DNA of 64,000 nucleotides, from the IMG/VR virus record IMGVR_UViG_3300032038_000022, positions 32,001-96,000 of that record; one strand, 5' to 3'. Below the pieces are notes generated by a model that saw only the letters and a list, made by a program, of their open reading frames with translations, was not told the origin of the DNA and did not search any database. Shown piece after piece: positions 10,213 to 34,500 of this stretch. This DNA comes from a virus (lineage: Duplodnaviria > Caudoviricetes). Each line of letters opens with the position of its first letter. The stretch's first letter is position 1. The translations under genes and the position numbers were made by a program.

Positions 10213-10240
10213 AGAGACTTTAATAGGTCCCTTTTATTTT
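10211..10240. terminator. candidate bidirectional terminator at the strand switch
   Basis: AAAGAGACTT-TAAT-AGGTCCCTTT imperfect stem between convergent gene blocks. Confidence 0.45.
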
Positions 10241-10907
10241 TGCTCTTTTCCAATTCTTAGTCCAATGTTCATCCGTAACAACATGATTTGGTCTAACATA
10301 CTTAAAGACATTATTCCTAAAATTGGATGTACTAAACTCATTTATATTTCTAACTACAATGCCTTCCATAGTACATTTTTCTCCCGTTATAGGATTATAA
10401 GAATCAAAAATACTACTAGATCGTGAAATCTCTAATACTTTTTCTTCCACTTCTATTGGAGAAAATATACCTAATACTGGAACACATGGAAATCCAAAGT
10501 ATTCTGCATACCACCGAACTTCATTCCAACTTAGCCATAAATCTTTATCATTATCCCTAACAGCAAACATATAAAATAATGATGAAAGATTTTTTATATT
10601 CAATACTATGAATTCCTTCTAAATTTTCTCCAAAAAGTTCAATATTTTCAGGTAAATCGAATTGTTTAAGAGTCCACTGCTGTCTAATCCATGATGTCCA
10701 AGGTGTTGTTGTAGGGGCTGCATGCGATCTAGCATAAACGCCATTTCTCGATAAACATGTATCTTCACCATCTAACTTCTCAGTAAATACTAACTGGTTT
10801 ATAGATTGACAATCCTTTATCCAATTATGATTTATTCTATCATCCTTTGTAGCTCCTGGACTAAAGGGAAAATGATAAGTTCTTCCATATTTATCAGTTT
10901 GTGGCAT
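10220..10907 (-). pseudogene. RNA ligase (nucleotidyltransferase family), split by a +1 frameshift
   Basis: KYGRTYHFPFSPG..DDR, motif I TEKLDGE and LFGEN in the 5' ORF; VPVL, MEGIVVR and FKYVR.NHV.TDEHW in the 3' ORF; the halves join by deleting one base in the T6 run at 10590-10595. Confidence 0.85.
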
Positions 10908-11967
10908 TTGGAATAGTAAATTTATGTAAAACTCTTACCTGTTCTTCTAAGGAATCAATAGTATTCGCATAAATTAAAAAACCGTGATTCTTTAGATTAA
11001 TTGCCCCACAATCTGAATCTCCAATCATCCTAATAACTTCATCAGCCTCACGAACATCACCACAGAGGTAATACTTATCAGTCATCTTAGCATTGTCAAT
11101 AAAAGCATGACCGTGAATCAAAAAGTTAATTTTTGGACATCCTTGATAAATTCTAAGTTGTGTTGGAGAATCTACACTAGGTTTAATATCTACAGGTTTA
11201 AGATTCACAAAAGTTGGAAAATATTCATCTCCATCCCTATAAATGATCATATCTCCAAAAGTCAAACTTTCTTTATCACTATTCCTAGGACTTACAAAAA
11301 TATGATTCTTATTATCTCTCATTGAGGGAAATAATTTTTGACATCTAGTACTAATATTCCCAAAGAATCTATCTCCGCAACTCTTTTTAACGACATCAGC
11401 TAGGTTTTTATTTATTCTTATCAATCTCGAAATAAGCATGACTTGACAAGAATTAGCTCTTAATTCTAATGCTGCAGACATTGCTTCCTTAACATCCGTA
11501 ATTAAAGTTGTACTAATTCTTTTTGCATCCTTCGTAAAAATATAAAACCTGAGAATTGCTAAACATAACTCCTCAATATCATCTCCATCATACCATATAT
11601 TATTAAGTGCATCAACAAGAGTAAATGTATAATAACCTGGTATACTATTTCGAATCTCAATTACAGCATTACCATGCATCTTAAAAATTCTTGATATCGA
11701 TTCAGCCCTTTTATATCCTGCTCTCATAACCTTTGAACATATAAGAACAGATCCAATTCTTTTCTTTGGATAATGCTTCTCTTCTTCATTAGGGATGTTA
11801 GGAATCCATAATACTAGGTCACCACATAATTCTGATGGTAGGTCTTTTAGTAAACCACCATTAATACATACTACTTCGTCTCCTCCTAAGATTTCTCTAA
11901 TCTGTCTTACAATTCCTGATTCCTTCGGTTCGGAACCAAAATTACCTCCTATTATTTGATACGTCAT
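10894..11967 (-). CDS. class II aldolase/adducin-like domain protein
   Basis: GNISTR, VSPRN.DK, KPSVDSP, LIHGHAF and LKNHGFL match the class II aldolase metal-binding pattern. Confidence 0.7.
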   Translation of the reverse strand: MTYQIIGGNFGSEPKESGIVRQIREILGGDEVVCINGGLLKDLPSELCGDLVLWIPNIPNEEEKHYPKKRIGSVLICSKVMRAGYKRAESISRIFKMHGNAVIEIRNSIPGYYTFTLVDALNNIWYDGDDIEELCLAILRFYIFTKDAKRISTTLITDVKEAMSAALELRANSCQVMLISRLIRINKNLADVVKKSCGDRFFGNISTRCQKLFPSMRDNKNHIFVSPRNSDKESLTFGDMIIYRDGDEYFPTFVNLKPVDIKPSVDSPTQLRIYQGCPKINFLIHGHAFIDNAKMTDKYYLCGDVREADEVIRMIGDSDCGAINLKNHGFLIYANTIDSLEEQVRVLHKFTIPNATN

Positions 11968-15024: not shown

Positions 15025-15062
15025 TTTCACTATTAAGGATTTAGAAAGAAGGAAAATTAAAG

Positions 15063-15133
15063 TTGGAGTACCAGGATTCGAACCTGGAAGTACAGAACCA
15101 AAATCTGTTGTGTTACCATTACACTATACTCCA
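15063..15133 (-). tRNA. tRNA-Gln(TTG)
   Basis: TGGAGTA acceptor stem, anticodon arm ACAGA-TT-TTG-GT-TCTGT, T-arm CCAGG-TTCGAAT-CCTGG; no encoded CCA. Confidence 0.95.
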
Positions 15134-15153: not shown

Positions 15154-15684
15154 CTAAGGATTTTGATCCTTTTCAATTCCCTTTATTATCAATAGTCTTA
15201 TAAGTTTATTAAAAGAACTTAGATAGTTGTTTTTCTCATTATTCTTTATCCAGTATAATAATATATCTTTTTCTATCCAAATTTTGTTTTTAAAAAGTGA
15301 TTTTTCAGTTAATATTATTGTTCTAAAAGACCCAAAGAATAGAGGAAACTTAAGATATTCATCTCTTATTAATCTTTTCCATTCAGGTAATTTAGTCCCT
15401 TTCCTTCTTCCTCTTCCACTCCACCATATAGAACAAGTACACTCAAATCTATGACATCCGTTTCTATCAAGTTCTATATCATTAGTCAGCCATCTATTTA
15501 GGTATCGATAGGGGTTACCCTTTAATTTCTTTTTAATCCATTCCATGCTAAACTTCTTAGGACAATTAAATTTATTTATTATTTTTAGCAGATCTGAATC
15601 ACTAAGTCTAAGGGTAAAGGGAATTCTTAAAGTAATGTCAGTATAATTTTTAGAATTCTTATTATATTTATAATATATCCACAT
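15154..15684 (-). CDS. basic hypothetical protein
   Basis: 176-aa K/W-rich ORF; no motif recognised. Confidence 0.55.
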   Translation of the reverse strand: MWIYYKYNKNSKNYTDITLRIPFTLRLSDSDLLKIINKFNCPKKFSMEWIKKKLKGNPYRYLNRWLTNDIELDRNGCHRFECTCSIWWSGRGRRKGTKLPEWKRLIRDEYLKFPLFFGSFRTIILTEKSLFKNKIWIEKDILLYWIKNNEKNNYLSSFNKLIRLLIIKGIEKDQNP

Positions 15685-15727: not shown

Positions 15728-15834
15728 TTAAGGAATTAAGGTCCAATATTTATTTTTCCAGTCTTCAAAAGACGTTTCATTCTCCAAGTAAGATTATAGA
15801 GATCTATGTATATGGGAAGGGATTCCGATATCAT
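15728..15834 (-). pseudogene. Avd/four-helix-bundle-like N-terminal stub joined to an orphan C-terminus
   Basis: 32-aa ORF MISESLPIYIDLYNLT-WRMKRLLKTGKINIGP (15834-15736); the first 16 aa resemble the LPIY.D.Y.L start of Avd-like proteins; another frame gives SYLENETSFEDWKNKYWTLIP-stop. Confidence 0.45.
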
Positions 15835-15862: not shown

Positions 15863-15929
15863 GGTGTGGCTCGGACCTATCTCACTCCGAATAGAGTTCT
15901 CGTTCAATTTGGCCAATCGAGCTCACACC
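15863..15929 (-). promoter_or_regulatory. GC-rich stem-loop downstream of the variable region (DGR target-recognition hairpin and/or terminator)
   Basis: GGTGTGAGCTCG pairs with CGAGCCACACC (11 bp, one bulge), starting 21 nt after the stop at 15951. Confidence 0.6.
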
Positions 15930-15940
15930 AGAAGATAAAT
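15922..15940 (+). repeat. 19-bp direct repeat, copy 1
   Basis: CTCACACCAGAAGATAAAT, identical at 17187 and 18516. Confidence 0.95.
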
Positions 15941-15950
15941 AGCTGAAGGG

Positions 15951-17024
15951 TTAAAGTGCAAAAAACGCCCTAACTCGACAGGTAGCAGTCGTATCAGACT
16001 TAGTGTAGGTGTATAAGTGACCGCTATACGTATGCACGTTCCTAACACTCGTAGAAGAGTTCCCAGTACTGGACCAACACCAGTGGCCATAAGCAGTATC
16101 TCGACCCATTTCAATTGCGATTGAATTACCCCAAACACTCTTAACAGCATTCAGACCAGCATTAATTGCTCCATATCTAGCAGTTATAAATGCTAATTCT
16201 CCGCACGCAGGAAGATACCAATCACCAACATTAGTACCAGTTGTATGGAATCGATAACAAGTCATAGCTGCCGGATAATTTCCAGAAGCTCCTGTATTTT
16301 CTATACTGCTTGCAGTCTTCCAATCAGTACCACTAACTGCAGCTAAGATTTTGTCAGTATTACTTCTTCCGTCAAAATCATTAGTAGCCATATTATCAGC
16401 ATAGTAAATTATATTTTTACTTCCATCTGGTAGGATAGGATTAGGTCCAAATCTTATTTCCCCATCAGAACCAATTGAAGAATCATAGTTACCAAAGTAA
16501 TAATCTCCAGATGGATCTATAGTACCAGTGTCATTAAAGGCAGTGTCACTAGGTATTCTTACCCAATCAGTTGCTCCACCGAGTTCACCAGTTTTTCCAT
16601 TTACATAATTTACTAAGCTATAATTTTTAAGATTTGCAACATCTACATTTGGACCCCATCTAAGATTTAGGTTATCACTTACATTACCATTACTTGTTGA
16701 TGTTGTTCCAACTTCGGGAGTTGTACAGCTCATATTTACAAGAGACATAATACGTGTAGTGTAATCTGGAGAATAGTTATATGGGACTGCAACAACTCCA
16801 ATTGGTGTCAAATGTGCATAATGAAATCCATTATTCTTATAGCTACCTGAACTCATGAATTCTATACTTTGTGTTTTAGAGTTATATAATGCTACGTCAC
16901 CAAAGGATGTTTTTGGGTATGGATTATAGTAGCACTTTCCCTCCACTAAGTCAATACCTGGAGTTGATATTTTATCAGCTTTACTCCAAGCATCTTTTGT
17001 ATCAAAACTTCTTAAATAATTCAT
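15951..17024 (-). CDS. DGR target-like protein (C-type lectin fold), copy A
   Basis: DFDGRSNT...DWYLPACGEL...WSST...RVRAF motifs; start taken at MNYL by alignment with copy B. Confidence 0.85.
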   Translation of the reverse strand: MNYLRSFDTKDAWSKADKISTPGIDLVEGKCYYNPYPKTSFGDVALYNSKTQSIEFMSSGSYKNNGFHYAHLTPIGVVAVPYNYSPDYTTRIMSLVNMSCTTPEVGTTSTSNGNVSDNLNLRWGPNVDVANLKNYSLVNYVNGKTGELGGATDWVRIPSDTAFNDTGTIDPSGDYYFGNYDSSIGSDGEIRFGPNPILPDGSKNIIYYADNMATNDFDGRSNTDKILAAVSGTDWKTASSIENTGASGNYPAAMTCYRFHTTGTNVGDWYLPACGELAFITARYGAINAGLNAVKSVWGNSIAIEMGRDTAYGHWCWSSTGNSSTSVRNVHTYSGHLYTYTKSDTTATCRVRAFFAL

Positions 17025-17186
17025 AATTTTCAATAGAATATTCACCATTCTTTGTAATGATGATCTTATTTCCGTATAGTATATTATATTCCTTGCGTTT
17101 GAAAATCTTATTTTCTTCTGCGAAAAACTTCTTTATGTCCATTACCCTAATAAAAGATTTATATAGAGATTAACAAAGCATATCAT

Positions 17187-17205
17187 CTCACACCAGAAGA
17201 TAAAT
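17187..17205 (+). repeat. 19-bp direct repeat, copy 2
   Basis: CTCACACCAGAAGATAAAT at the junction of the two tandem units. Confidence 0.95.
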
Positions 17206-17215
17206 AGTTGAAGGG

Positions 17216-18283
17216 TTAAAGTGCAAAAAACGCCCTAACTCGATAGTCAGCATCCGTAACGAATTTAGTGTCGGGACACACGTAACCAAGACTCGTATTC
17301 ACTTCCCAAGCAGCCAAACCAGAGAACCCAGAACTAGACCAATAACAGTCGCCATAAGCAGTATCTCGACCCATTTCAATTGCGCTTGAACTACCCCAAA
17401 CACTCTTAACAGCATTCAAACCAGCATTAATCGCTCCATATCTAACAGTTATAAATGCTAATTCTCCGACTGCAGGAAGATACCAATCACCAACATTAGT
17501 ACCAGTTGTATGGAATCGATAACAGGTCATAACTGCCGGATAATTTCCAGGAGTTGCTGTATTTTCTATACTACTTGCTGTCTTCCAATCAGTACCACTA
17601 ACTGCAGTTAAGATTTTGTCAGTATTACCTCTTCCATCAAAATCATTAGTAGCCTTATTATCAGCATAGTAAATTATATTTTTACTTCCATCTGGTAGGA
17701 TAGGATTAGGACCAAAGGGCATATCCTCATCAGTACCAGTTGAAGAATCATAGTTAAGAGAGTAATAATCTCCAGATGGATCTATAGTACCAGTGTCATT
17801 AAAGGCAGTGTCACTAGGAAGTCTTACTGAATCAAACTCTCCCTGTAGTTCACCGGTATTTCCATTGACATAATTATTTACGGTATAATGTTTAAGAATA
17901 TCTACATTTGAACCCCAGCTAAGATTTAGGTTATCACTTACGTCACCATCACTTGTTGCTGTTGTTCCAACCTCAGGAGTTGTACAGCTCATATTTACAA
18001 GAGACATAATACGTGTAGTGTAATCTGGAGAATAGTTATATGGAACTGCAACAACTCCAATTGGTGTCAAATGTGCATAATGAAATCCATTATCCTTATA
18101 GCTATCTGCACTCATGAATTCTATACTTTGTGTTTTAGAGTTATATAATGCTATATCACCAAAAGATGTTTCTGGATATGGATTATAGTAGCACTTTCCC
18201 TCCACTAAGTCAATACCAGGAGTTGATATTTTATCAGCTTTACTCCAAGCATCTTTTGTATCAAAACTTCTTAAATAATTCAT
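17216..18283 (-). CDS. DGR target-like protein (C-type lectin fold), copy B
   Basis: Close paralog of copy A with a strongly divergent C-terminal 36 codons; DWYLPAVGEL...YWSSS...RVRAF. Confidence 0.85.
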   Translation of the reverse strand: MNYLRSFDTKDAWSKADKISTPGIDLVEGKCYYNPYPETSFGDIALYNSKTQSIEFMSADSYKDNGFHYAHLTPIGVVAVPYNYSPDYTTRIMSLVNMSCTTPEVGTTATSDGDVSDNLNLSWGSNVDILKHYTVNNYVNGNTGELQGEFDSVRLPSDTAFNDTGTIDPSGDYYSLNYDSSTGTDEDMPFGPNPILPDGSKNIIYYADNKATNDFDGRGNTDKILTAVSGTDWKTASSIENTATPGNYPAVMTCYRFHTTGTNVGDWYLPAVGELAFITVRYGAINAGLNAVKSVWGSSSAIEMGRDTAYGDCYWSSSGFSGLAAWEVNTSLGYVCPDTKFVTDADYRVRAFFAL

Positions 18284-18297
18284 AATTAGTTTTAATT

Positions 18298-18471
18298 TTA
18301 ATCATTATAAACCTGGCCGAGTTCCCAATCTTTAGGTTTATCAATGATTTCATAATTATCAATAGAGTCTTCACCATTCTTTGTAATGATGATCTCATTT
18401 CCGTATAGTATATTATACTTCTTGCGTTTAAAAATCTTATTTTCTTCTGCGAAAAACTTCTTTATGTCCAT
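18298..18471 (-). CDS. 57-aa protein missing from the ORF track
   Basis: MDIKKFFAEENKIFKRK...KDWELGQVYND, coupled by TAATG to the upstream gene; a truncated duplicate starts near 17142. Confidence 0.65.
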   Translation of the reverse strand: MDIKKFFAEENKIFKRKKYNILYGNEIIITKNGEDSIDNYEIIDKPKDWELGQVYND

Positions 18472-18968
18472 TACCCTAATAAAAGATTTATATAGAGATT
18501 AACAAAGCATATTATCTCACACCAGAAGATAAATTTAACTTTATCTAATTCTATGATTAGGTTTTCTTTATTCACTGTTTTTATAAATATTATTATAAAA
18601 GTTATTATTGGGATTACCCATAACATCATCCACCAAGGGTTTCTATAGAATATCACCCAGAGTTGTGAAAATATTCCTGCTATACTAGCTCCTATTATGT
18701 GAATTGTTTTCTCATAATCCCTTACTCTAGGAGCAGCACCTACTAATATTAATCCAAATATTCCAGCAAATGGTATTATTTGCGTATATGGTGTTATATC
18801 CATACAAGTTGGTAGCACTAAGAGAGCACTGGTCCATAATACTAGAGTGAATATAGGTCCCCATTTTATTTCATAATAGGATTGTGAAAGAGAGCTTGGA
18901 ATTCCATATTTTATACAAACCCAAAGAGTATAGGCACTTAGTATCGCCAGAGATATGATCACGTTCAT
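18471..18968 (-). CDS. multi-pass membrane protein
   Basis: GIPSSLSQSYY, LVGAAP, IH.IGA, FWCE with several hydrophobic helices. Confidence 0.75.
   Translation of the reverse strand: MNVIISLAILSAYTLWVCIKYGIPSSLSQSYYEIKWGPIFTLVLWTSALLVLPTCMDITPYTQIIPFAGIFGLILVGAAPRVRDYEKTIHIIGASIAGIFSQLWVIFYRNPWWMMLWVIPIITFIIIFIKTVNKENLIIELDKVKFIFWCEIICFVNLYINLLLG
18516..18534 (+). repeat. 19-bp direct repeat, copy 3
   Basis: CTCACACCAGAAGATAAAT inside the codons for FIFWCE of the membrane-protein gene. Confidence 0.95.
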
Positions 18969-31500: not shown

Positions 31501-34500
31501 ATACGTACAGTTTTCAAAAGGGGTGTAAATCGGAATAGGTCTAAGTCGATTATTAGCAAAACGAATTTTAGTTACGACAGGATTATTTCTAATAGTAACA
31601 CTACTTAAACTTGTCATAGGAGATAAGTCAAGTAATGTCGAATCTGTATTAGGAATGTTATTATATGTAATACTAGAAAGTTTAGCAGAATCAATATTAA
31701 AGGTAGTAAGTTTATCACAAGTTCCATTTATAGTAAGACTCTTCAGGTTTGAACATCCTCCAAGATTGAGAGTTACCAAGTTTGTAGCATTAATAATTAC
31801 ATTTTCAAGATTATTTGCTGAATTCTCAGAACTAACTGCCAAAGAAGTAATGTATGGTCCGTCAACAGTTATTTTCTTAAGTTTTGTACAAGTTTCTATA
31901 GTAACTCTTTCAAAATTAGTAAGCGTAAGTTCTTCAAGTGCACTATCTGCAATAGTGAGACTAGCATTCCTTTTTTCTTTTGCATCTAGAGTAAGATATT
32001 TAATTCTATTTCCTCTTAGAATAATTTCATTTGTCCATATAGGATTAATAATACACTCACTTATGGTTGAATTTCCAAAAGTAACAGTTTTTAAAGCATT
32101 ACAGTCAGAAAGTTTCACTGATGAAGTATTTATATAACTTAAATTAACAGTTTTTACATTTTCTGCAACTACTTTCAATTGAATCCTACTATTACTAATA
32201 TCAATGTTATTAAGATTAGGGAAATTATCAACAGCACTTGCATCAAAGACTAACTCTCCTTGATAATCAGAACTTGTTAAAGATACGTCCTGAAGAGCAG
32301 GCATATTTAAGTTCCAGCTTCTAACAGTACCAGAATTACCATTTAATGTCGTAAGGCGATTTGTACTAATATTAAAAGGAGTTCTAACAAAACTATTAAT
32401 ACTATCCAAGTAGGTCCAAAGTGCAGAACCACCAAAGATCCACTTATTATTACCAGTAATATCAGTAGTTGCAATTTTATATTTATTTGTAGATTTCTTC
32501 AATAAATATCTATAATATAGACTATCTCCCATCTTCATAATAAGAGGAGAATAATCTGGTGCTTTAATTATGAAACTGAGATTATCCTGATAAGATTGAT
32601 CAGATCCAAAAATATCCTTGATTACATAAATATCATTATTAGTTGTATCAGTTACGTTTGCATTAGGGTAAGCCTCATAATATTGCTTATCACGGCTTAA
32701 GTATTCCTTTCCATCTGAAATTGTAATAGATGTATTACCGATAATATTAAAATAAGCATCAAGGATATGTAAACGACCATTAAGCCATTCTCTGACATAA
32801 GAAATACGTCTTCCTTTGAAACGGCTAATTTCAGTACTAAATCCAGTTTTATCAGCATTCGTTAAGAGATATTTATGACGATAATTAAAGTTAAACATTA
32901 ATTCATCAACATTCTTCATATAACCAGAATAATAAGTTTCCATGAACTTATCAGCATTAGCAAGTGGTCCCGTCCCTTGTCTCCACGTAGCCCAAAGATT
33001 CTGAGGAGATTGAAGATCAGCCTCCTTTAAGAATTCATCTTTATTATTCATTGCTCTAGCATACTTAGCAACAGCAAAAGCATATGAACTGGCAATATCA
33101 TAACCGACAATACCATCAGCCTGTGATTTATCAAAGTAGTCTCTGTATACTTCTACAGGTTTTGCATTATAGTAATCCTCTTCACTATCTTTAACTGATT
33201 TATCTTCCCAGAAATCACTAAAAGCAAAATATGTACTATCTTTACCATCATTATCAATACCAAGACAGGTATCCATATCATAGAAGGCAAAGTAGAATGT
33301 ACCACCGGAATTCCATGTTTTAATATTAAGGTTCTTTTGTACTGAGTCTAGAAGACCAAATGCCATACAAACCGTATAATATTCAACTAAGCTTGGAAAG
33401 TCTACATAAGGTGCAACAGTACCAGTGCCAGACGTTTGTCCACTAATGTAGTAAATAAGATCATTTTGTGTAGGATCTTCAGGAGTTCTAGAATCATCTT
33501 TCTTATAACTAGGAACACCAGTAGAAGACACACTCTTATTATATTGATCATAAACATTAGGAACTGATCCTTTTTCACGATAACTATTTTTATGAGATCT
33601 CATCCTTTTCCCAATAGCATAGAATACATAACCGCCAGCACGAGCTGTATGTTCAACAAATGCTTGAATTCTTTGGTTTGTAATAGATGGGTCTGCACCA
33701 GACTCTGTATCATCAAACATGAACTGCTTATCAACACCACTTTCTACTGTGAATAGAATCGAACTACCATATTCAGAGAAATCCCAGTATATATTATTAT
33801 CTGAAATTTCAGATACTGTTAGATTTGGTTTAAGAGCATATGCTGAATCTTGGATTGCACAAACACAGAATCCATTATCACTTACTCTTAAGTCATCAGG
33901 AAGATTACTTGTTGCACAATATCCTAAGTTAAAGTAGCTAGAGCGACCGAGGTTACAGTTATAAATTCCGAGATAGTAACATTCGGTCTTATCAGCTTTG
34001 CCACCTGGATTATTAATTTGAACAAATACAAGAATTGGAAAACCAGTAAGACAGTTCTTCACGTAATTTGTATACTTTCCTGTATCACCTACAGTAGCTT
34101 GAGTGAATTTAGAGGTATTAGCATTAACAAAAGCACCCATACTTGTATTATTAGAGTGACTTGAGTCAACAACGTCGGCTTTTAATGTAAATGCTTTCTC
34201 AGGAAGGTAAGTATTCGTGTCATTAGGGTTAAACCTTGGAGAGAATAGTGGAGTATATCCAGCAGTACTGTCCGCAGCTTGAATACCTAAAGTATAGTTC
34301 TTAGCATGATAAGTTCTTGTAGTAGAACCCTGAATATCGAGAGTAAACTGTGCTGCGATAGAACCATTTCCTGCAGCAATATTACTAATATCAATGTCTT
34401 GAACTTCAGAATTACCATTACTCCAAGCAATACCAATATTTAGTTTACTACTATCATTAGAGTTAGCACCGTAAATCTTATCACTCCATTCAATAAATCT

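Follow-up and report, generated by a model that had tools for sequence, protein, structure and literature searches.

The 64,000-nt stretch of DNA analysed here (the window), positions 32,001 to 96,000 of the phage record IMGVR_UViG_3300032038_000022, contains two tandem paralogous genes, A and B, whose neighbours are tail-fibre-like (Table 1). Their products exhibit 82% amino acid identity, with a mosaic pattern over the length of the gene, and the divergence between them is as large as that between either of them and the orthologs, which come from different samples. Paralog A has also an in-frame ATG upstream, at 17048, which would give a 365-aa version of the protein (P0001). Each gene ends in a variable repeat (VR_A and VR_B) followed by a common 22-nt sequence, a 57-aa ORF (18298-18471) precedes the target gene, and the region is further characterized by a long hairpin, a short relic ORF and three exact copies of a 19-bp direct repeat, versus 0.05 expected.

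Table 1. Coordinates of the tandem target genes, their variable repeats and the adjacent repeats and relics in the window
Feature	Position	Strand	Description	Basis
Paralog A (P0003)	15951..17024	-	DGR target gene, 357 aa	ORF, AF2 model
Paralog B (P0002)	17216..18283	-	DGR target gene, 355 aa	
VR_A	15978..16088	-	37 variable-repeat codons, residues 313-349	gapless alignment to TR of L002/L003
VR_B	17243..17353	-	37 variable-repeat codons	alignment to relatives' TR
3' end of VR_A	15956..15977	-	IMH-like, CGAGTTAGGGCGTTTTTTGCAC, 22 nt	same in VR_B and relatives
3' end of VR_B	17221..17242	-	IMH-like	
Hairpin	15863..15929	-	long, imperfect, GGTGTGAGCTCG...CGAGCCACACC, then T-rich run; between A stop and avd stub	
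19-bp direct repeat, copy 1	15922..15940	-	ATTTATCTTCTGGTGTGAG; downstream of A	
19-bp direct repeat, copy 2	17187..17205	-	between B and A, at duplication junction	
19-bp direct repeat, copy 3	18516..18534	-	upstream of B, inside 3' end of 165-aa gene	
Truncated ORF duplicate	17002..17142	-	46-aa duplicate of the 57-aa ORF, 93% identity; within duplicated unit	
Deletion scar	15736..15834	-	32-codon in-frame avd/RT relic ORF	blastn vs L002, alignment, translations

According to its AF2 model (pLDDT 93), the protein encoded by paralog A is predicted to possess a C-terminal domain with the C-type-lectin (CLec) fold, in good agreement with the identity originally suggested for it. Comparison with representative structures by VIA-align revealed the C-terminal domain of Lcl (8q4e) as the best small-domain match, with Z 10.3; the model was also matched by TvpA (2y3c, Z 7.9), Mtd (1yu0, Z 6.8), TaqVP (5vf4, Z 5.4) and many animal CTLDs, while a Foldseek search of the PDB with the whole model returned no match at E <= 1e-3. 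At the sequence level only a weak match to Pfam PF07603 Lcl_C (DUF1566) is found (E 7e-4), which at 20.4 and 19.7 bits falls below the gathering threshold of 34.9. Since several homologs at 33-47% identity have a precomputed PF07603 match, and the fold matches that of Lcl, the target protein is classified as a divergent relative of Lcl_C and not as a scored member. The VR spans three strands of the CLec model (residues 315-321, 326-331 and 336-341), along which AAY codons alternate with fixed ones (N-V-N-T-N, N-T-N-A-N-C), and this alternation would place the adenine-variable residues on one face of the sheet. The codons with TR adenines encode residues 314, 322, 326, 329, 331, 333, 334, 336, 338-340, 344, 346 and 348. 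In VR_B both framework cysteines have been replaced by tyrosine, and copy B has also gained two new cysteines.

The differences between the paralogs are strongly clustered in the VRs. In the 111-nt block that precedes CGAGTTAGGGCGTTTTTTGCAC, a MAFFT alignment and a direct count gave 39 base differences in 26 of the 37 codons, compared with 42 in the 492 nt upstream, and the Fisher test of this contrast (p = 2e-11) indicates that the cluster is not due to chance; on the 3' side of the VR the two copies are identical through the stop codon and for about 50 nt further. By codon position, the substitutions number 17 (first), 14 (second) and 8 (third), exactly as counted in the original prediction (31 at the first two positions, 8 at the third). 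This skew, which had been taken as a sign against drift, is real, but the rest of the gene (12/16/14) is not significantly different (p = 0.22), and therefore we do not use it as stand-alone evidence; it becomes decisive only when the differences are sorted according to the recovered template repeat (TR).

The TR was recovered from close relatives of the window phage (L002, at 11697-11838, L003/L004 and L008) and is present in L002, L003, L004, L008, L012 and L014. In L002, whose target is 87% identical and which also shares with the window the 173-aa and 669-aa genes, the target is followed by bAvd (PF22296; 40.7 bits with a cut-off of 40), a 350-nt gap and a reverse transcriptase (RT, PF00078). 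The same cassette of target, bAvd, TR and RT has been found at the same place in L003/L004, L011, L012/L013 and L014/L015, which come from other metagenomes. Contigs of the relatives reach 373 kb, consistent with a lineage of phages of roughly 370 kb. In IMG/VR, a search for related proteins and another for the 22-nt sequence yielded nothing besides the window's own record, and Rfam found no family in the target-avd-TR region of L002.

Both VRs of the window align base for base with the relatives' TR. With that TR as the reference, standing in for the one of the window lineage, VR_A exhibits mismatches at 13 of 40 adenines and at 9 (9-10) of 99 other positions (p = 1.4e-3), and VR_B at 21 of 40 adenines and at 13 (13-14) of 99 other positions (p = 4e-6). 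A template whose variable positions are not adenines had been named in advance as evidence against the DGR; the recovered one differs from both VRs preferentially at adenines, which supports the prediction of DGR-type variable regions in both paralogs, and the TR core reconstructed earlier, AACGTGAATACGAATAATGGTAAC, differs from the real one by no more than two wobble bases. When the A/B differences are sorted by the TR, 21 of the 39 are located at its adenines (codon positions 13/8/0; 7 transitions), with none at the third position (p = 3e-4), and 18 at non-adenine sites (4/6/8; 11 transitions), which account for all eight third-position differences. The AAY parentage proposed for the differing codons thus applies to 21 differences, the remaining 18 having arisen later by ordinary substitution; of the six codon pairs quoted for it, two (TCT/GGT and AAC/TTC) do not derive from AAY codons. 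Similarly, the G+C excess of the VRs (48-49%, versus 37% for the genes and 32% for the whole window) is genuine, but the relatives' TR itself has 43%, which leaves A-to-N mutagenesis as only a partial cause.

The identical 3' flank was also interpreted correctly. The 22-nt CGAGTTAGGGCGTTTTTTGCAC occurs without change in VR_A, VR_B and all VRs and TRs of the close relatives L002-L010, and the TR and the VR part directly after it, following GCAC (ATTAT vs TTTAA), which, judged from the sequence, makes this common 3' end IMH-like.

Downstream of paralog A only remnants of the machinery have been left. The relic ORF comprises avd codons 1-14/15 and the last 17-18 codons of the RT (MISESLPIYIDLYN joined to LTWRMKRLLKTGKINIGP and a stop codon), the junction falling within a TATAA microhomology (about 15789-15798); a deletion of 1.8 kb has taken out the TR together with codons 16-115 of avd and codons 1-388 of the RT. 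A tblastn search with the Avd and RT of L002 against the 118.9-kb record, which by CheckV represents 32% of the genome (roughly 370 kb), revealed only the two stubs, avd 1-15 and RT 389-408, abutting in frame, the latter corresponding to the last 20 residues of the relative's RT (15739-15798). The same 118.9 kb contain no match to PF00078 that could correspond to a DGR-clade RT, no part of Avd beyond the 15 codons joined to the RT tail, and no third VR-like copy, while searches for the TR (blastn and nhmmer with the VRs, blastn with the TR region of L002) detected only the two VRs. No working DGR is present at this site.

The 19-bp repeats are also found in the single-copy relatives L002-L004, where an upstream and a downstream copy flank one target gene. 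The hairpin is conserved in L002-L004 between the target and avd, and it is truncated after copy B of the window. Its predicted folding as RNA is weakly supported (-25.1 kcal/mol, z -1.9) and as DNA it is not significant (z -1.0); it may have served as a terminator or as a DGR target-recognition hairpin.

Taken together, the locus is very probably composed of two neighbouring copies of a DGR target whose RT, template and helper have been deleted, so that the VRs are frozen alleles, altered at present by ordinary mutation alone. The system is of a known kind, namely a CLec2/DUF1566-class phage DGR in decay. Its target would be a protein of the tail-fibre region with a C-terminal CLec domain (DUF1566/Lcl_C, 'CLec2') ending in the 37-codon VR, and the ancestor, like the close relatives, would have carried bAvd, an AAY-rich TR and the RT directly downstream of it. 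In copying the TR RNA the RT would have misincorporated at adenines, and the resulting cDNA would have replaced the VR up to the common 22-nt 3' end, until the deletion between the TATAA microhomologies disarmed the element; the frozen VRs would have kept the layer of adenine mutagenesis and later acquired ordinary point substitutions at non-A positions. The tandem pair probably arose by unequal recombination between the 19-bp direct repeats that flanked a single-copy gene, and since neither copy is closer to the other than to the orthologs, this recombination may have joined two co-infecting lineages. This is the order of events that we infer, and the two copies would presumably provide the phage with two fixed receptor specificities.

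It may be argued that the DGR is still active and continues to diversify one or both VRs, with the RT and TR encoded in the two thirds of the genome outside the sequenced record, or acting in trans from a co-infecting relative with an identical IMH. The record indeed covers only 32% of the genome, both VRs have retained the full 22-nt 3' end that matches the TR, copy A has retained the hairpin downstream, and remote targets of DGRs are known (Wu et al. 2018, PMC5758913). However, the cognate cassette has been deleted at the syntenic site, where the stubs remain, and the 209.7-kb ENA contig L001 has exactly the same VR sequences as the window. A homing event rewrites every non-adenine position of the VR from the TR. 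In the intact relatives the VR differs from its own TR at 12-20 adenines and at only 0-2 other positions (0 of 99 in L002), compared with the 9 and 13 non-adenine mismatches of VR_A and VR_B, which implies that homing has stopped. Moreover, at all 18 non-adenine sites that differ between A and B one copy has retained the base of the relatives' TR, and hence at most one of the VRs could match a single TR. We therefore regard continuing activity as quite improbable and the adenine signature as the record of past homing, historical and not ongoing. The same 18 sites, with their 11 transitions, led us to reject the idea that the TR of the window lineage was merely richer in adenines. Two non-adenine departures from the TR are common to both copies, and one of them (TAC) is a TR variant found in L008. 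The non-adenine divergence of the VRs (12-17%) is above the background divergence of the gene, an excess not accounted for by simple neutral drift following a recent loss.

Another possibility is that no DGR has ever been involved, and that ordinary diversifying selection and recombination at the receptor-binding tip produced the C-terminal divergence. Mosaicism and an abundance of non-synonymous differences are seen elsewhere in the gene as well, and nearly half of the VR differences (18 of 39) are not adenine-derived, but this explanation hardly seems credible in view of the gapless alignment of the VRs to the relatives' TR with its strong adenine enrichment, the restriction of adenine-site differences to positions 1-2 of AAY codons, and the avd and RT stubs downstream of the target; nor is the relatives' 'TR' likely to be a decayed gene fragment, given the lack of non-adenine mismatches in L002. 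The tandem pair, on the other hand, might be an assembly artefact, created by the fusion, at the 19-bp repeat, of two strain variants of a gene present in single copy. The distance between A and B equals that between orthologs from different samples, the junction lies inside a repeat, and the two assemblies disagree in a patch of 3 SNPs, where the window has the version of copy B. We nevertheless consider such an artefact very unlikely, since the k-mers indicated in the contig ids (k141) exceed the 19-bp repeat in length and the duplicated unit includes the truncated copy of the 57-aa ORF; the IMG/VR record and ENA contig L001 also agree on the tandem layout, with 3 differences in 21 kb, although both may derive from the same reads and their agreement is not independent. 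An artefact of this kind would affect neither the deletion scar nor the VR signature.

Beyond the loss of the element, one can envisage a switch of strategy after the DGR, in which two different pre-diversified VR alleles were captured in tandem via the 19-bp repeats, providing two fixed specificities, with accelerated point mutation now refining them. Retention of the full IMH in both copies could conceivably allow them to be rewritten in trans by a co-infecting DGR-proficient relative. We regard this scenario as rather improbable.

Among characterized systems, the window phage and its relatives resemble the Legionella pneumophila DGR, whose target LdtA represents the DUF1566 'CLec2' VR class, category d (Wu et al. 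2018, PMC5758913): in both cases the VR is located at the extreme C-terminus of a DUF1566/Lcl_C-type CLec domain, the TR is rich in AAY, and an Avd-type gene and the RT are adjacent, here in the intact relatives, and it is the C-terminal domain of Legionella Lcl that the target model matches best among small domains. However, LdtA is a bacterial surface lipoprotein encoded in an integrative element, whereas the target described here belongs to the tail-fibre region of a large phage, and has a sub-gathering Lcl_C score (20 vs 34.9 bits), and in the window the RT, TR and Avd have been deleted. The Bordetella phage BPP-1 (Mtd, bAvd, TR, Brt) likewise combines a receptor-binding-type phage protein of the CLec fold and a C-terminal VR with the order target, avd, TR, RT seen in the relatives, adenine-specific mutagenesis and a 3' VR end common with the TR. 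Mtd matches the target by fold only; sequence similarity is undetectable and the N-terminal architecture is different. Besides, BPP-1 has an IMH and IMH* with a few mismatches, while here the VR and TR match perfectly along all 22 nt of the end and are wholly divergent beyond it, and the window phage possesses two targets and no machinery.

The best structural match to the whole protein is the 'fimbrial protein' BACOVA_04982 of Bacteroides ovatus (4eps; Z 14.0, 203 residues), which aligns at 207-534 of its chain with residues 20-357 of the model, so that the middle and lectin domains are in common. It is a cellular pilus protein, whose fimbrial N-terminal half is absent from the window target; fimbrial (P_gingi_FimA) extensions have been noted on DUF1566 DGR targets (Wu et al., PMC5758913). 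Finally, the DGRs of gut Bacteroides phages, i.e. Hankyphage (Benler et al. 2018, PMC6199706) and phages of B. uniformis (PMC8143477), are similar in that they are compact cassettes with CLec-type tail proteins in gut or rumen phages, but those phages have intact DGRs and belong to the temperate or small siphoviruses, in contrast to the lineage of ~370 kb analysed here, in which the cassette has been lost from the window member.

The understanding of how DGRs work is not changed by these findings. DGR surveys detect the elements by their reverse transcriptase, and RT-less relics are therefore excluded by design. At this locus the intact state of the relatives and the decayed state of the window can be compared base by base, revealing the deleted parts and the junction, and a conserved DGR cassette is documented in a clade of phage contigs of roughly 200-430 kb. 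The VR positions that are normally reset by the TR start drifting after homing ends, and non-adenine mismatches to the TR of the family offer a sequence criterion for recognition of a dead DGR target. If the switch of strategy and rewriting in trans were true, the target unit flanked by the 19-bp repeats would be a mobile, exchangeable 'specificity cassette', with or without the retroelement. The locus is also a natural experiment in the evolution of a hypervariable receptor-binding tip without its mutator.

The two tandem target genes, A and B, are about 91% identical at the nucleotide level, except in some mosaic patches and in a block of strong divergence ahead of their common 3' end. In this 111-nt block, which holds the variable repeats (VRs), 26 of 37 codons differ, with 17, 14 and 8 substitutions at codon positions 1, 2 and 3, and the density of differences is 39/111 compared to 42/492 upstream (p = 2e-11). 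Both genes then share the 22 nt CGAGTTAGGGCGTTTTTTGCAC without a difference, and this identity extends through the stop codon to about 50 nt past it; the G+C content of the block is 48-49%, versus 32% in the window. The original prediction had reported the differing codons and the codon-position substitutions, which our recount reproduced exactly, as well as the identical 3' flank and the raised G+C content, both of which are borne out. It had also stressed the codon-position skew: the count of 31 (positions 1-2) to 8 is correct, but the skew alone is not distinct from that of the remaining gene (p = 0.22).

In a diversity-generating retroelement (DGR), a reverse transcriptase (RT) and the accessory protein bAvd copy the RNA of a template repeat (TR), with misincorporation opposite adenines, and the VR is then overwritten by the cDNA as far as the 3' end that the two repeats share; one homing event rewrites all non-adenine positions. 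Relatives of the window phage were obtained by a protein search across other metagenome assemblies. The 84-kb contig L002, whose target is 87% identical to that of the window and whose locus is syntenic with the window on either side, encodes in order a 165-aa protein, a 57-aa protein, the target, bAvd (PF22296), a 350-nt spacer, RT (PF00078), and proteins of 173 aa and 669 aa. The spacer contains a TR (11697-11838), which differs from the VR of L002 at 12 adenines and at none of 99 non-adenines. The TR of contigs L003 and L004 has one base different and that of L008 is slightly different, while additional VRs come from L007, L009 and L010. More distant members (L011, L012/L013, L014/L015; 43-51% identity) also have the target-bAvd-TR-RT cassette, on contigs as long as 430 kb, and computed VR/TR differences are adenine-specific in L012, L014 and L015. 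Because the relatives share the cassette and these differences, the family evidently possesses a conserved, active DGR of large phages, and the action of the DGR mechanism in them is supported by this sequence pattern.

Contigs L011-L015 and others of the family span 200-430 kb (e.g. 373,550 and 429,844 bp) with the cassette intact, hence a DGR is a routine part of this clade of very large phages; the DGRs reported by Benler et al. 2018 (PMC6199706) were all from temperate phages. The same VR framework and an identical 22-nt 3' end occur on very different, far shorter targets of 167-168 aa in L007 (3427-3933) and L010 (931-1434, minus strand), and, with a VR of other length, in L005, L006 and L009. 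A 108-aa ORF without a bAvd Pfam match follows the targets in L005, L007 and L010, the contigs reaching that flank, and the TR matching L007 lies on L008, a separate contig from the same metagenome. The VR/TR module appears to be common to several target architectures.

The cognate TR of the window lineage was inferred from that of the relatives, to which both window VRs align gap-free. VR_A is mismatched at 13/40 adenines and 9-10/99 other positions (p = 1.4e-3), and VR_B at 21/40 and 13-14/99 (p = 4e-6). A and B differ at 39 sites, which fall into two clean layers. The 21 at TR adenines are distributed 13/8/0 over the codon positions and include 7 transitions; the 18 at non-adenines are distributed 4/6/8, comprise every third-position change and include 11 transitions, and at all 18 of these sites one copy retains the TR base of the relatives. 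The adenine layer is the DGR signature, and the other consists of ordinary point mutations acquired by a stretch once equal to the TR. Two non-adenine differences from the TR are common to A and B, one of them equal to the L008 variant, and probably mark the lineage's own lost TR. Since homing resets the non-adenine positions, yet the window VRs exceed the 0-2 mismatches found there in intact relatives (9/76 and 13/76 versus 0/76; p = 3e-3 and 1e-4), homing into both VRs must have stopped long ago. The original prediction is confirmed as an observation, and its DGR interpretation is supported with corrections: it had proposed reconstructing the TR, and mismatches to the TR found in relatives do favour adenines, but 18 of the 39 differences lie elsewhere.

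The record (118,859 bp; CheckV completeness 32%), of which the window covers bases 32001-96000, is part of a large phage, and neither an RT nor a third VR copy was found within it. Blastn homology with L002 spans the target and the first 45 nt of avd, to about 15789 in the window, and restarts from 15798, 62 nt before the RT stop, with the junction inside a TATAA microhomology. The resulting relic ORF joins MISESLPIYIDLYN to LTWRMKRLLKTGKINIGP before a stop codon (in L002, Avd starts with MISESLPIYIDLYNLIEK and RT ends with WNYNPTWRIKRLLKTGKINIGP), and tblastn detected no Avd or RT similarity beyond these two stubs in the 118.9 kb. About 1.8 kb is absent (L002 11232-13048), namely avd codons 16-115, the TR and RT codons 1-388.

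Features of the locus and its surroundings (window positions)
Feature	Position	Strand	Remarks
RNA ligase gene (PF09414)	10220-10907	minus	two overlapping ORFs
tRNA-Gln (anticodon TTG)	15062-15133		downstream of paralogs, just past deletion scar
176-aa ORF	15154-15684		just downstream of deletion scar; 173-aa ortholog after RT in L002
669-aa ORF			downstream of paralogs A and B
avd/RT fusion relic ORF	15736-15834		32 codons; Avd residues 1-14 in frame with RT tail
19-bp repeat	15922 (start)		after A
Paralog A	15951-17024	minus	357 aa, P0003; upstream ATG gives 365-aa P0001
VR_A block	15978-16088		111 nt
Patch in paralog A	16409-16419		differs from L001
19-bp repeat	17187 (start)		between B and A
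Paralog B	17216-18283	minus	355 aa, P0002
VR_B block	17243-17353		111 nt
19-bp repeat	18516 (start)		before B
Very large ORFs	28555-49683	minus	2676, 1497 and 2076 aa; upstream of tail-fibre region

The paralogs close a gene run with weak tail-fibre or minor-tail matches; the 176-aa ORF has no family match. Compared with the intact 228-aa gene of L002 (17925-18611), the RNA ligase gene is split by a single inserted A, for which a frameshift, a programmed shift and a sequencing error are possible explanations.

There are three exact copies of the 19-bp repeat ATTTATCTTCTGGTGTGAG (0.05 expected). In single-copy relatives the target unit is flanked by this repeat on its upstream side and, with 3 mismatches, on its downstream side; unequal recombination between such repeats would account for the tandem pair, as well as for the second, truncated 57-aa ORF. 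The resemblance of A to B does not exceed that of A to its orthologs in L002 and L003, and identity is mosaic along the gene. Two co-infecting lineages, rather than a recent duplication within the genome, may thus be the source of the two units. Compared with L001, the ENA assembly of this phage (possibly derived from the same reads), the window differs at only 3 positions in 21 kb, all within 11 nt of paralog A. There it has the sequence of paralog B, which replaces I with L in the protein; either a short tract of gene conversion or cross-talk between the paralogs during assembly could be responsible.

An AlphaFold2 model of the target, built from a 94-sequence alignment (pLDDT 93, pTM 0.89), matches the B. 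ovatus fimbrial protein 4eps (Z 14.0 over 203 residues), the C-terminal domains of Legionella Lcl (10.3) and Bd2740 (9.2), the DGR variable proteins TvpA (7.9), Mtd (6.8) and TaqVP (5.4), and many animal C-type lectins. On these matches, with Lcl as the best Foldseek match and a sub-threshold Pfam Lcl_C match, the modelled target is placed in the DUF1566/'CLec2' class of DGR targets (Wu et al. 2018; PMC5758913). The VR (residues 313-349) forms the last three strands ahead of the terminal strand encoded by the shared 3' end. Its variable and fixed codons alternate along the strands, consistent with the variable residues forming one exposed patch. A comparison of 12 close relatives shows free variation at the AAY-coded positions and conservation of the non-adenine framework (WCWSSSG, SS, AR, V, T, G, V, TKS, T, A, C). 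Copy A departs from this framework at three residues and copy B at five or six. Both near-invariant framework cysteines are lost in VR_B, each by TGT to TAT, and cysteines are gained at two other positions of this VR; copy B could have a rearranged disulfide, or it could be decaying.

The locus is a decayed example of an already known kind of system. In the window phage the mutator would be gone and the two lectin tips would now be fixed alleles, presumably with two receptor specificities. They would evolve through point mutation, somewhat faster than the remaining gene, and selection or relaxation may lie behind this difference in rate.
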